Positions 11,654 through 16,720 of a DNA stretch of 64,000 bases are shown here, in pieces. The stretch spans positions 480,001 through 544,000 of the forward strand of contig CAVVUN010000015.1 in assembly GCA_963751455.1 (NCBI GenBank), given 5' to 3'. Each line of letters starts with the position of its first letter. Positions within the stretch are counted from its first letter, which is position 1. Made by a program: the position numbers and the translations under genes. This stretch comes from Nitrospirota bacterium (GTDB lineage Bacteria > Nitrospirota > UBA9217). The notes under the pieces are model-generated. The model was not told the origin of the DNA. It made no database searches and worked only from the letters and a program-made list of their open reading frames with translations.

Positions 11654-12400
11654 GTGATCATGAAACGAATTATTACCTCAGTAACAAGTGCTTTACTCGT
11701 TATTTTGATTTATGGTAATGGCTACTCCGTTGAGACAAAACCGCCTGTAGCGCCGCCGCAACAGCGTGACGCGGACGAATTGTCGCTCTCGGGAAAAGTG
11801 ATTGAAACCATGAACGGCGGTTCATATACGTATGTGTGTCTTGAGAAAAAAGGCAAAAAGACCTGGGTTGCCGTTCCGATGATGGAGGTCAAGGTAGGAC
11901 AGAATATGGCGTTTGTGCCCGGCTCCGAAATGAGAAACTTCAGCAGTAAGACGCTTAACAGGACGTTCGAGAGCATCTATTTCTCCGGCGGACCCCTTGC
12001 AATATCGGCTACGAAGACGGCATCCGCACCACACGACGGCAGCAAATCTACGGCTGCTCCGGCAGCGGGCGGGAAGATCTCCGTTGAAAAAGCCGCCGGT
12101 CCCGACGCGTATACGATCGGCGAAATTTTCGCCAAAAAGAAATCTCTGGATAAGAAAACAGCTGTTGTCCGGGGCAAAGTTGTGAAGGTCTCTTCCGGAA
12201 TCATGGGGAAGAACTGGTTCCATATTCAGGATGGGACCGGTGATTCCGCCAAAAAGACCCACAACCTCGTGGTTACTTCCCAGGATTCGCCGGCAGTCGG
12301 AGATGTCGTAATCGTAAAAGGCACTCTCTACAAAGACAAGGATTTCGGCGCAGGCTATAAATACGATATTATCATGGAGCAGGCAAAAATCCAGCGCTAA
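11654..12400 (+). CDS. Exported OB-fold protein (NrfJ-like)
   Basis: Signal peptide; GKVIETMNGGSYTY, KTLNRTF, GIMGKNWFHIQDGTG, KDFGAGYKY. Confidence 0.75.
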   Translation: MIMKRIITSVTSALLVILIYGNGYSVETKPPVAPPQQRDADELSLSGKVIETMNGGSYTYVCLEKKGKKTWVAVPMMEVKVGQNMAFVPGSEMRNFSSKTLNRTFESIYFSGGPLAISATKTASAPHDGSKSTAAPAAGGKISVEKAAGPDAYTIGEIFAKKKSLDKKTAVVRGKVVKVSSGIMGKNWFHIQDGTGDSAKKTHNLVVTSQDSPAVGDVVIVKGTLYKDKDFGAGYKYDIIMEQAKIQR

Positions 12401-12449: not shown

Positions 12450-12960
12450 TGCTACCCGGTGCTTTTAAGAGATGCGTAAAACAAAGCTTGACAAATTGCC
12501 GATTTTGATTGAAAATCATGTTGTCATCGCCGGTTCGTATTTCGCTGAACGGCGTATCGATGTTTGACAGCAAATAGCGGTAATCGGGCGTTTCTAAGTA
12601 GTTTTTTTTTTATCCCATCTGACCGTCACTCAAAGTCGTCCCTCGTCCATTCACGGGTCTTTATCGCAATCCGAAAACCATAACCGGATTCACCCTATTT
12701 ACCCTATTAAGGCGGCAAGTTTCCAGGTCGGCAGTCCCGACAAGGCGGTCCCGGCGGATAAAGCCCTTTTCGCAAATCCTCGATATGCCGCCCGCAGCAT
12801 AAAGCACAGAGGGCATGTATGGTGTCAGGCGGCAACATGGGATCATTGTTCGCATCACAAAAATTGTTCTCCAACAGGGTTTACTTTTTCCCGCCGATTG
12901 TGCATAATACTCTTCCATGCCAATCGCGATGCAGCGCGCTGCGAAACTAAGGAGATATAC

Positions 12961-14745
12961 ATGAACGGATCCAGTAACCAAAAATTAAACATGTGGGTAC
13001 GCGAGGCTGCGGATTTATGCAAGCCCGACGCGGTGCACTGGTGCGACGGGTCGAAGGCTGAGTACGACAAAATGATGCAGATCATGCGGGAACGCGGGAT
13101 GGCGATCCCGCTCGGCAAACGGCCCAACAGTTATCTTTTTCGTTCGGATCCGAGCGACGTGGCACGCGTGGAAGACCGGACCTTCATAAGCACTTCATCA
13201 AAAGAAGAGGCCGGGCCCACGAACAACTGGGTTCACCCGGATGAACTCAAGAAAACAATGCGGGGGCTGTACAAGGGCTGCATGAAGGGCCGTATAATGT
13301 ATGTAATTCCGTTCTCCATGGGCCCCATCGGCTCCCCGATATCCAAAATAGGCGTCGAGCTGACAGACAGCCCGTATGTTGTCTGCAATATGCACCTAAT
13401 GACCCGGGTCGGCGCCAGCGTACTTGAAGTGCTCGGAGCGGACGGGGAGTTTATTCCGTGCCTGCATTCGATCGGCGCGCCTCTTGCTCCGGGCAGGAAG
13501 GACACGGCATGGCCTTGTGCCCCGATTGAAAAGAAATACATAAGCCATTTCCCCGAGGAGAACCTGATCTGGTCGTACGGGTCCGGGTACGGAGGCAATG
13601 CGTTGCTCGGAAAGAAATGTCTTGCGCTCAGGATTGCCTCGACCATGGCCAGAAGGGAAGGTTGGATGGCGGAACATATGCTGATCCTCCGCTTGACAAG
13701 TCCCGAAGGGAAGCACTATCACATTGCCGCCGCATTTCCATCCGCCTGCGGCAAGACCAACCTGGCAATGATGCAGCCCGCGGTCCCGGGCTGGAAATGC
13801 GAATGCATCGGCGACGATATCGCCTGGATGAAGGTGAAGGATGACGGCCGTCTCTATGCAATCAATCCGGAAAGCGGTTTCTTCGGCGTGGCGCCCGGGA
13901 CATCGTACAGCACGAATCCCATGGCGATGGACACCCTGAAGGAGAATGTCATCTTCACGAACTGCGCTTTGACGGACGACGGCGATGTATGGTGGGAAGG
14001 CATGACCGACGAGTCGCCGTCACACGCCATAGATTGGAAAGGCCGGGACTGGACGCCTGCCAGCGCCGAGGACGCTGCGCATCCCAACGCGCGCTTTACC
14101 GCGCCTGCATCGCAATGTCCCGTCATCTGTAAGGACTGGGAAAACCCGCAGGGCGTACCGATCGACATCTTTATCTTCGGCGGACGCAGGACGAGCGTAG
14201 TGCCGCTCGTGACCGAGGCTTTTTCCTGGGACCACGGGGTGTTCCTCGGTGCGACAGCGGCTTCGGAGACCACATCCGCGAACATCGGAGCAGTCGGAAA
14301 CCTCCGGCGTGATCCCTTTGCCATGAAGCCGTTCCTCGCATACCACATGGGCGACTACTTTCAACACTGGCTCGCGATGGGCGACCGGCTTGGTCCGAAG
14401 GCGCCAAGGATCTTTTACGTGAACTGGTTCCGGAAGAGCGGCGAGGGCAAATTCCTCTGGCCGGGCTTCAGCGATAACAGCCGGGTGCTCAAGTGGATAT
14501 GTGAACGCGTGGACGGAAAAAGAGACGCGAAGAAGACGCCGATCGGGTTGATGCCGAAGGATGGAGACCTCGACCTGCGCGGACTTGATATTGCATCCGA
14601 CGACATGAAGGCGCTTATGGATGTGGATGTGAAGGCGTGGAAGGCGGAGATTCCGGACATCGAGAAGCACTTCGCGCTCTTCGGAAAACGCCTGCCGGAG
14701 CGGCTCAAAAAGCAGCTCGAGGAGCTCAGGAAACGGCTGGGATAA
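12961..14745 (+). CDS. pckG: Phosphoenolpyruvate carboxykinase (GTP)
   Basis: [43 protein letters not shown]; AAGGAG RBS before ATG 12961. Confidence 0.97.
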
Positions 14746-14950: not shown

Positions 14951-16720
14951 ATGGATCCTTCAACCATAAAAGATGCGTGGGGAACGCCGTCCTCTCGAAG
15001 ACGCACCGAAAAAAACCCTCCCCATAAAGCGCTCATAAACGTTCTGGGCGTTGTTTATCTCCACACCAAAACAGAGGACGGGGGAGACCTGTATCTAACT
15101 CCGTTTGCCGTGGCCCGCCACAAATTTCTCGAGATCAAAAACTGGTACGAGCATAAGTGGTTTACGAAGCACCGGGTACGTCTTCTAGGGACGAGCTCCG
15201 TGTACCGCGTCCCTACCAGGCGCGTAGACGGCGAGCGGCTCGACCTTGTCGTCAAAAACTGCCGCGTCGGCGAAGACGTTCCTCTCAATACGCACACGCT
15301 GCAGGAGTTCTGCAACGCGGAGTTCAACAGCCCCTGGGAGGAGTTTGCTCTCGTCATGGAAATGGCCGAGAAACAGCAGGGGCATCAGGACGGCAGGGTA
15401 AGGGCGCAGCTTCCGCTGGCGATATACATTCCTCCGCAGCGGATGCAGCTCTGGCAGAGCGGTCGATCCCGGTCTAAGATCAATCGGATCCGCGCGCGGC
15501 ATCCCGGCATCGACCTCGATATTCTCAAACAGTATAAGCTTATTTATGAATGGATCCGCGGCAAGAACCTGACTGAGATTTTCGAGCATATCAGGATGGA
15601 GCTTCCCGACGTCGTTTATCATCTCCAGGCGATGCAGAAGAAGGCCTTCGATGACCTGAGCGCAAAAGGTTATCTCATGGCAGATATAAAACCCGAGCAC
15701 GTAATTCTGGACGAGGAGGACTGCGCCCAAATCGAGAAACTCGGCAAGGGCCGGAATGGCGGCGCAGCCGCGAGACAGGTGGAGATGGTCTACGAGTTGC
15801 TGAATCAGGGGAAGTACTCGATGATCGATTACGAACTGCTGTTCAGGACTCCCGAGCATGAGGACCGGGTAAAATGCTCCCGGCGTCACTGCTACCTGGA
15901 TGATATGAGGGACCGGCTTGCACCGACGTCCCTGCCGTCCCACCTTACCCGCGTGGACATATACGGTGTGCCGTATATTTTCGGACGCGCTGAAAGCACG
16001 GGCGGCCGCATGTGGGTTGTCGGAAGAAATGCACGCCTGTTCGATTACTTTCTTCCCGAGCGCTGGCGCAAGACGCCCTCGCTCAGCCTGTCCAATACGA
16101 ACGAGGTTTTTTACACCGTGACCAAGGACAACATCCATCTGGTCTGGAAAACCTCGAGGGTGGGCGAGATCCCGGACAACAAATACAACGCTGAGGAAAT
16201 CGCGAAGGTCAAAGAATACGGGATTAACAGCCCGTTCGAAGAGTTCGCGATCTCTCAATCTCTCAACGAACAGGGGATCCATTCCGTATACGTACGCGCG
16301 GTATATATGACCGGCAGCGCCAAAGTGGAGCGGTCGATCGACCCCAGGAAGTTCGAGTCCCACAAGGCAATACTCGACAGCGACGGCAAACCTGTCCTCG
16401 ACGCAGGGCATAATTACATCACGATTCGCGGCTATTATAACGGACCGGACAAATGGGTGTCCGAACATCAGGACGCGTCGCTGCTCACCCCGCTTGATCT
16501 CGACAGGGCGGTACGGAAAAAGATCATCGATGAGTCTCAATGCAGAATTTACCTGGAGAAGGCGGTCGAGCGGCTGCGCGCAGCCGGCTATGACGGGTCG
16601 CTGCTCAAAGCGAACGACCTTCTCCTGGCTCTCGATGCCAAAGATGGGATAATGAAGGACGAAGCAGGCGAGCCGGACATCATCATATGCAATTTCGAAA
16701 TCCTCTGGAAGCTCAAATGA
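14951..16720 (+). CDS. Hypothetical protein with two tandem atypical kinase-like repeats
   Basis: LVVKNCRVGE...NSPWEEF...DIKPEH...IDYE is repeated as LVWKTSRVGE...NSPFEEF...LLKAND...CNFE. Confidence 0.8.
   Translation: MDPSTIKDAWGTPSSRRRTEKNPPHKALINVLGVVYLHTKTEDGGDLYLTPFAVARHKFLEIKNWYEHKWFTKHRVRLLGTSSVYRVPTRRVDGERLDLVVKNCRVGEDVPLNTHTLQEFCNAEFNSPWEEFALVMEMAEKQQGHQDGRVRAQLPLAIYIPPQRMQLWQSGRSRSKINRIRARHPGIDLDILKQYKLIYEWIRGKNLTEIFEHIRMELPDVVYHLQAMQKKAFDDLSAKGYLMADIKPEHVILDEEDCAQIEKLGKGRNGGAAARQVEMVYELLNQGKYSMIDYELLFRTPEHEDRVKCSRRHCYLDDMRDRLAPTSLPSHLTRVDIYGVPYIFGRAESTGGRMWVVGRNARLFDYFLPERWRKTPSLSLSNTNEVFYTVTKDNIHLVWKTSRVGEIPDNKYNAEEIAKVKEYGINSPFEEFAISQSLNEQGIHSVYVRAVYMTGSAKVERSIDPRKFESHKAILDSDGKPVLDAGHNYITIRGYYNGPDKWVSEHQDASLLTPLDLDRAVRKKIIDESQCRIYLEKAVERLRAAGYDGSLLKANDLLLALDAKDGIMKDEAGEPDIIICNFEILWKLK

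Follow-up and report, generated by a model that had tools for sequence, protein, structure and literature searches.

A tandem kinase-pseudokinase encoded beside GTP-dependent PEP carboxykinase in Nitrospirota and proposed as its regulatory kinase

What does the gene directly behind pckG encode in this Nitrospirota bacterium, and does its product act on the enzyme encoded next door? In the window, by which we mean the whole stretch of 64,000 nucleotides that was analysed, an open reading frame of 589 codons (protein P0001) begins 205 nt 3' of the gene for GTP-dependent PEP carboxykinase (GTP-PEPCK; Table 1), whose true start is probably the shorter one, at ATG 12964. An earlier note, made from the DNA sequence alone, had read the frame as an internally duplicated protein without a transmembrane segment in which an active kinase is joined to a regulatory pseudokinase that may control PEPCK. 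The nine motifs it quoted were all found in the translation (LLGTSSVY at residue 78, LVVK at 99, SPWEEF at 127, DIKPEH at 245, DYE at 293, LVWK at 397, SPFEEF at 427, LLKAND at 551, and NFE at 581), and the maximal hydropathy over 19 residues was 0.61, in agreement with a protein that is, as judged from its sequence, soluble. A promoter and terminator scan near the gene returned sites at about chance level, with no plus-strand terminator-like site between pckG and the kinase gene. On the other side of pckG the window holds a predicted exported protein of 248 residues (11654-12400; cluster C3) with weak OB-fold matches and no family over the cut-off, which lies 5' of pckG in 13 of 41 loci (40 relatives plus the window).

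Table 1. Positions in the window of the tandem kinase-pseudokinase, its parts, and the candidate sites in its predicted partner.
Feature	Position	Strand	Basis
Tandem kinase-pseudokinase gene, 589 aa (P0001)	14951..16720	+	ATG 14951, stop 16720
pckG, GTP-dependent PEP carboxykinase, predicted partner and substrate	12898..14745	+	NF003253 equivalog, E 2e-293
Half 1 (~residues 26-300), intact minimal protein-kinase-like domain	15026..15850	+	Conservation and structure matches
Linker helix (residues 301-322) with conserved R312, Y315 and R322, replacing the activation segment	15851..15916	+	AlphaFold2 model, half-half profile
Half 2 (~residues 333-588), pseudokinase copy	15947..16714	+	Conservation; fold range 303-565 of the model
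PEPCK P-loop Ser282 (numbered from 12898), candidate phospho-acceptor	13741..13743	+	Predicted interface; Ser in 85/85 PEPCKs aligned
PEPCK omega-lid region S456-N468, candidate phospho-acceptors	14263..14301	+	Predicted interface; loop identity by motif and offset from PMC12529880 (available text)

The earlier note did not recognise a characterised family here, and we likewise obtained no true sequence relative from Pfam, NCBIfam or the PDB. The Pfam search gave nothing over the cut-off and a single sub-threshold match of 19 residues, the NCBIfam search gave no match, and the PDB sequence search gave only weak 70-residue matches to RSK and PAK (E 0.003-0.08). At least 2145 of 7997 scored candidates are nonetheless homologues of P0001, the named ones being labelled 'hypothetical protein', and GTDB genomes contain 533 stretches that match the tandem kinase, which forms 653 clusters at 50% identity. 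Close relatives with names come from Nitrospirota, to which the atlas clusters add Verrucomicrobiota. The tandem kinase thus forms a real and widespread family, and one that is undescribed in so far as a full-text literature search, with subscription journals and supplements outside its coverage, returned no description of these proteins. Its architecture varies in places: a longer subfamily of ~650-680 residues repeats part of the half-2 C-lobe once more (L256 from G537, P0133, P0135, P0138, P0142, and P0147), while other members carry an N-terminal GNAT (P0125), a methyltransferase fragment (P0150), a helix-hairpin-helix insert within half 1 (P0170), or an unannotated helical C-terminal extension (P0132).

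Alignment of one half against the other with HHalign bore out the proposed duplication (probability 99.65, E 4e-25, 235 columns), with a profile-profile score so far past chance that the duplication can be taken as real. The AlphaFold2 model used (pLDDT 88.8, pTM 0.74) was generated from an alignment of 106 sequences, a model of pLDDT 60 from a shallow alignment having been discarded, and in it an identical order of secondary-structure elements occurs twice. Searching this model with Foldseek and VIA-align placed a kinase-like fold in both halves, as every match listed by either method is a protein-kinase-like (PKL) chain. The VIA matches mostly cover half 2, and structural support for half 1 comes from DAPK2 (Z 7.3) together with its homology to half 2. 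The top match was ULK4 (Z 8.7, rmsd 3.7, 142 residues aligned), followed by Rio1 (1zp9; Z 8.6, rmsd 4.5, 156 aligned), WaaP (6dfl; Z 8.5, rmsd 4.7, 162 aligned), and APH (4pdy; Z 8.3, rmsd 3.3, 133 aligned); with Rio2 included, these span Z scores of 8.1-8.7, a tie in which none stands out as nearest, and sequence identity to the five top structural matches is 8-15%. The fold had been described earlier as that of RIO, Kdo or APH kinases. Its kinase-like nature holds, but the narrower assignment is not supported, because Hanks-type kinases match equally well within that range of Z scores and the DxKPxH catalytic loop is Hanks-like. Atlas neighbours of P0001 are Kdo/WaaP/WaaY proteins (feature score 0.93); the Pfam families PF01163, PF06293 and PF01636 gave no match, and neither did the Hanks-type family PF00069 at E values up to 1. 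Each half stops right after its equivalent of the DFG motif (DYE or NFE), and the structural alignments end near the DFG of their targets, so that both halves lack the activation segment (through to APE) and helices F-I of Hanks-type kinases; in place of the GxGxxG loop there is one conserved Gly only. The protein belongs to the PKL superfamily, whereas the comparisons made here did not assign it to the Hanks-type, RIO, Kdo/WaaP, APH, AceK or DUF299 families.

Several known kinases share part of this design. RIO1/RIO2, WaaP/Kdo, Bud32 and APH resemble it in their truncated C-lobe and supply top structural matches, but the tandem protein has no Pfam match to them and differs in its DxKPxH loop, its tandem duplication, and a family-specific N-terminal beta-hairpin module. 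JAK and TYK2 also combine a kinase with an inactive regulatory copy in a single polypeptide, and the structures 7t6f and 4oli align across both halves of the model (Z 7.5 and 7.2), though at an rmsd of 17-20; the order of their domains is reversed, they differ from the tandem protein in that the latter has no activation segment, and their origin is unrelated. Among bacterial pseudokinases, the DYD family consists of membrane-bound proteins without a beta3 Lys according to the available text of the review PMC12599244, in which the words 'tandem', 'carboxykinase' and 'Nitrospir' have 0 occurrences.

The two halves differ sharply in what they retain. Half 1 has a Gly loop (G80-S83), K102, E131, the catalytic loop D245-x-K247-P-x-H250, and D293-Y-E295, of which K102, E131, D245, K247, D293 and E295 are each invariant in 106/106 homologues; its DxKP corresponds to the catalytic loop of Ser/Thr protein kinases. 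The catalytic-loop Asn, the second metal ligand, is replaced by His250 in 105 of the 106 and present in one. Divergent kinase folds such as SelO and SidJ carry out non-phosphoryl transfers (AMPylation or similar), and the non-canonical His250, the short Gly loop, and the presence of SelO among the structural matches (Z 7.3) would suit a comparable modification of PEPCK. We consider this highly improbable, however, as half 1 has a canonical Lys/Glu/Asp/Lys/Asp set and SelO does not rank above other PKL matches. In half 2, by comparison, the catalytic Asp is found in 0/106 homologues (position 551) and the metal-binding Asp in 1/106 (position 581), which upholds the proposed division into kinase and pseudokinase: half 2 combines a PKL fold with the loss of catalytic residues. 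The LVWK and SPFEEF motifs said to be kept in this half are present, but the beta3 Lys is not kept across the family (K400 is Lys in 46/106 and Glu in 36), and half 2 has therefore degenerated further than the earlier note had it. Its mean conservation is nonetheless 0.64 vs 0.55 for half 1, with conserved ESTGG, LFDYFLPERW and GxNSPFEE stretches, which argues for a maintained pseudokinase rather than a decaying copy.

A sister family of single-domain proteins (~290-320 residues) has all of the half-1 catalytic residues and a WQLGR motif, and its members stop 8-43 residues after DFEL (P0201, P0212, P0214, P0215, P0219, and others). The set comprises 33 of the best 150 representatives that passed a filter, some of which could be truncated by contig ends, and the D, K and H of the catalytic loop are kept in all 33 aligned. 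Where the phylum is known the members are mostly Verrucomicrobiota, with one Planctomycetota record. The sister family corresponds to no Pfam family: 0/33 matched the RIO, Kdo-WaaP or APH families, and there was one weak ABC1 match (E 0.005); no member was found in the viral contigs or plasmids searched, and genome G000 has no paralogue. The existence of this family suggests that the tandem protein likely arose by duplication.

If the protein controls PEPCK, its gene should accompany pckG in other genomes, and the survey of neighbourhoods that the earlier note had proposed revealed that it does. The tandem kinase gene is present in 48 of 301 Nitrospirota genomes. Flanks of 7 kb were compared for 40 of the 47 relatives, and pckG was within ~6 kb in 40/40, mostly directly upstream, with other neighbours varying from locus to locus; of the remaining seven relatives, five are adjacent to pckG, one (G161) has pckG on another contig, and one (G139) is cut by a contig end. 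Among the best 80 GTDB loci, which overlap the 40-locus set, pckG was near in 76, including 51/51 with both flanks of at least 2.5 kb. At many loci the genes for pyruvate carboxylase and FBPase are part of the cluster, the latter occurring in 13/40 Nitrospirota loci. Genome content followed the same pattern, PF17297 being found in 46/48 carriers vs 9/253 non-carriers; of the two carriers without it, one has a contig-cut pckG beside the gene and the other a contig break inside the gene. One genome, G005, has a decayed tandem-kinase pseudogene 3' of an intact pckG (G005:C9:21228-21679; L258). PEPCK persists there and where the kinase gene is missing (G103 and G211), which makes the kinase an accessory protein.

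The association extends to a second phylum, that of G301 (301 genomes), in which 11 strong carriers were identified and GTP-PEPCK was found in 11/11, against a background of 111/301; two weak matches, G394 and G498 (E ~3e-4, 75-120 residues), were excluded from the carriers, and neither is in the PEPCK list. The converse does not hold, as 100 of the 111 GTP-PEPCK genomes are without the kinase gene. Fisher tests of co-occurrence in the two phyla gave p values of 1e-42 and 1e-5, which overstate the association since related genomes are not independent samples. An rpoB tree scatters the second-phylum carriers over six positions; two of them, G336 and G429, lie far apart on it, yet their PEPCKs group in one rare clade and their kinases likewise in one clade, as judged from fast trees with local supports. 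Four loci of this phylum (L267, L268, L270, and L271) have a deeply divergent GTP-PEPCK, ~30% identical to the window enzyme, with no GxFLWPG and an altered R-loop. In G301 itself, a genome labelled Syntrophales, contig C80 carries a Nitrospirota-like pckG-kinase locus (L095/L240/L257) that nests among Nitrospirota and may have been transferred or mis-binned.

At least five separate clades of the kinase include members adjacent to pckG or fused with PEPCK, and both gene orders are represented. The natural fusion, P0121, comprises 1157 residues in which the tandem domain is followed by an Ala/Pro linker and PEPCK; it is one sequence on one 8.3-kb contig, read at the protein level. Apparent further fusions in L190, L192 and L234 proved to be off-frame read-through of an abutting pckG. 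The link is looser elsewhere: in distant clades pckG is adjacent in 10/80 metagenome loci (3/15 with both flanks of at least 2.5 kb), and in the second phylum in 2/11 carrier loci. Some distant loci lie beside pyruvate carboxylase, malate dehydrogenase, malic enzyme or PFOR and many beside unrelated genes. Linkage to malic enzyme was rejected as a general feature, occurring in only 2/40, 2/80, 1/80 and 0/11 loci and thus minor in these samples. One clade (L179, L185, L213-L215, and L252) has a conserved block of LUD/CCG lactate-utilisation genes, a UbiE methyltransferase, a small unknown membrane protein and FmdE, with no pckG. That most distant loci are away from pckG, and that a single-domain sister family exists, would fit a general cytoplasmic kinase acting on another target or on several node enzymes, with the pckG link reflecting co-regulation and co-transfer only. 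We think this improbable, given that all 11 second-phylum carriers have GTP-PEPCK though it is adjacent in only two, that a natural fusion exists, and that a model of the complex sets active site against active site.

That model was generated from PEPCK residues 23-615 and kinase residues 27-375 with ATP and Mg, so that most of half 2 lies outside it. The complex reached an ipSAE of 0.77, against 0.00 for the best of three controls, and passed a mark reached by 116/157 solved complexes and 2/215 mismatched pairs, counts that apply roughly to the alignments and ligands used here; the runs agreed on 89% or more of the contacts, with a partner pLDDT no lower than 78. As sequence searches gave no solved relative of the kinase family, the model is unlikely to reflect memory of a like complex. 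On the kinase side the ~120 contacts involve the Gly loop (79-83), the catalytic loop (245-248) and an insert (165-182), and on the PEPCK side residues 88-92, 282-283, 367-373, 430/432, 456-464 and 513-523, which include the R-loop, P-loop and omega lid as located by motif and offset from the available text of PMC12529880. The prediction thus places half 1 over the active site of PEPCK. Conservation of the interface is not raised family-wide (0.51 vs 0.55 for the rest of half 1) and is slightly raised in 14 Nitrospirota sequences (0.85 vs 0.78); the GxFLWPG stretch, which makes the tightest modelled contacts, is absent from the divergent PEPCKs of four carriers.

Three hydroxyl residues of PEPCK in this interface are candidate acceptors. 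Like S282 (Table 1), both S456 and T459 are Ser or Thr in all 85 PEPCKs aligned, an alignment from which 15 loci were left out as short, split or interrupted by stops. No Ser/Thr specific to carriers was found among these 85 sequences, and a T/S at 432 or 433 is enriched (34/35, 4/5 and 8/9 vs 14/29) but is not invariant and follows phylogeny. The lack of a carrier-specific site, the large modelled interface covering all three active-site loops, and a fusion that implies stoichiometric partnership would all suit a non-covalent, nucleotide-gated regulator that inhibits PEPCK by capping its active site or activates it by freeing that site, the switch being the binding or hydrolysis of ATP in half 1. 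We hold this to be unlikely, as D245, the catalytic base, and K247 are invariant, a pattern that one would look for in an enzyme that phosphorylates a hydroxyl and not in a protein that only binds.

A second alternative places a small molecule in the role of substrate. With its DYE/DFE motif, its lack of an activation segment and its numerous invariant Arg residues, the protein would also fit a kinase of small molecules or nucleotides that is channelled to PEPCK, one that makes GTP from GDP and ATP at the nucleotide site, for example, or phosphorylates a node metabolite; the truncated C-lobe recalls APH and WaaP, the atlas neighbours point the same way, the model sits over the nucleotide-site motifs of PEPCK, and genome G000, which is 100% complete, has no match to the nucleoside diphosphate kinase family PF00334. 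Of the 46 same-family genomes that were searched, only 16 had a match to PF00334. Replacement of nucleoside diphosphate kinase as a general role was not borne out, however, as the enzyme is present in 30/55 carriers vs 11/25 non-carriers (p 0.47; 80 of 85 intended genomes searched), and replacement of pyruvate kinase or PPDK was rejected because genes for pyruvate kinase and for the PPDK/PEP-synthase family are present in 5/5 carrier genomes tested. With these results a channelled small-molecule kinase appears rather unlikely.

We therefore favour, as a moderately probable reading, a dedicated AceK-like regulatory kinase of GTP-PEPCK with a pseudokinase partner half, on the strength of the modelled and structure-searched fold, the residue pattern, the linkage and co-occurrence, one fusion, and a predicted docking. 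By analogy with AceK and with PDRP/PSRP (DUF299), we infer that half 1, once docked, would transfer phosphate to a Ser/Thr that is invariant in the PEPCK active site, either T459 or S456 in the omega lid or S282 in the P-loop, that this would switch PEPCK off, and that half 2 may serve as a scaffold or effector sensor. A covalent switch of this kind would limit futile cycling at the PEP-pyruvate-oxaloacetate node, given the pyruvate kinase and PPDK-family genes in 5/5 carriers and the FBPase in 13/40 loci. The available text of PMC8100219 describes GTP-PEPCK as an enzyme that works near equilibrium and is not under allosteric control. A conserved phosphatase neighbour was not found in the loci compared. 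Phosphorylation of T459 could instead block lid closure so that enol-pyruvate leaks and PEPCK becomes an oxaloacetate decarboxylase under the control of a metabolite-sensing pseudokinase half; this possibility, which we give a low probability, is suggested by the position of the lid in the predicted interface and by the formation of pyruvate on premature omega-lid opening reported in the available text of PMC12529880.

AceK has a kinase-like fold and targets an active-site Ser of isocitrate dehydrogenase. It is soluble, of similar size (578 residues) to the tandem protein, and switches one central metabolic enzyme by phosphorylation, according to the available text of PMC9138534; docking on the active site of a single metabolic enzyme is, for the tandem protein, a prediction from the ipSAE of 0.77 and the genomic linkage. 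Unlike AceK, the tandem protein has a duplicated kinase fold as its partner domain and PEPCK as its proposed target; P0001 has no AceK family match in Pfam or NCBIfam at E values up to 1. Among the structural matches listed AceK is absent, which decides nothing either way. Plant PEPC kinase and PDRP/PSRP, the latter acting on PPDK and PEP synthase, are likewise dedicated kinases of enzymes at the PEP-pyruvate-oxaloacetate node (available text of PMC8100219 and PMC9138534). Neither targets PEPCK, however, and PDRP/PSRP differ in having a P-loop fold and using ADP and Pi, in contrast to the PKL fold of the tandem protein, which has no Pfam match.

A literature search, with subscription papers and supplements outside its coverage, found no dedicated bacterial regulator of GTP-PEPCK, and the tandem protein, if our reading is correct, would be the first dedicated kinase for this enzyme. 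As the candidate sites are invariant in the 85 aligned PEPCKs, the kinase could serve as a tool for switching PEPCK. The minimal kinase-pseudokinase tandem and its single-domain sister family provide a clean model for the origin of a pseudokinase by duplication. If the proposed activity is confirmed, a family thousands strong would join AceK, PDRP/PSRP and HPrK as dedicated metabolic kinases. It would then account for how flux through the PEP-pyruvate-oxaloacetate node is controlled in bacteria of sediments and groundwater, Nitrospirota among them.
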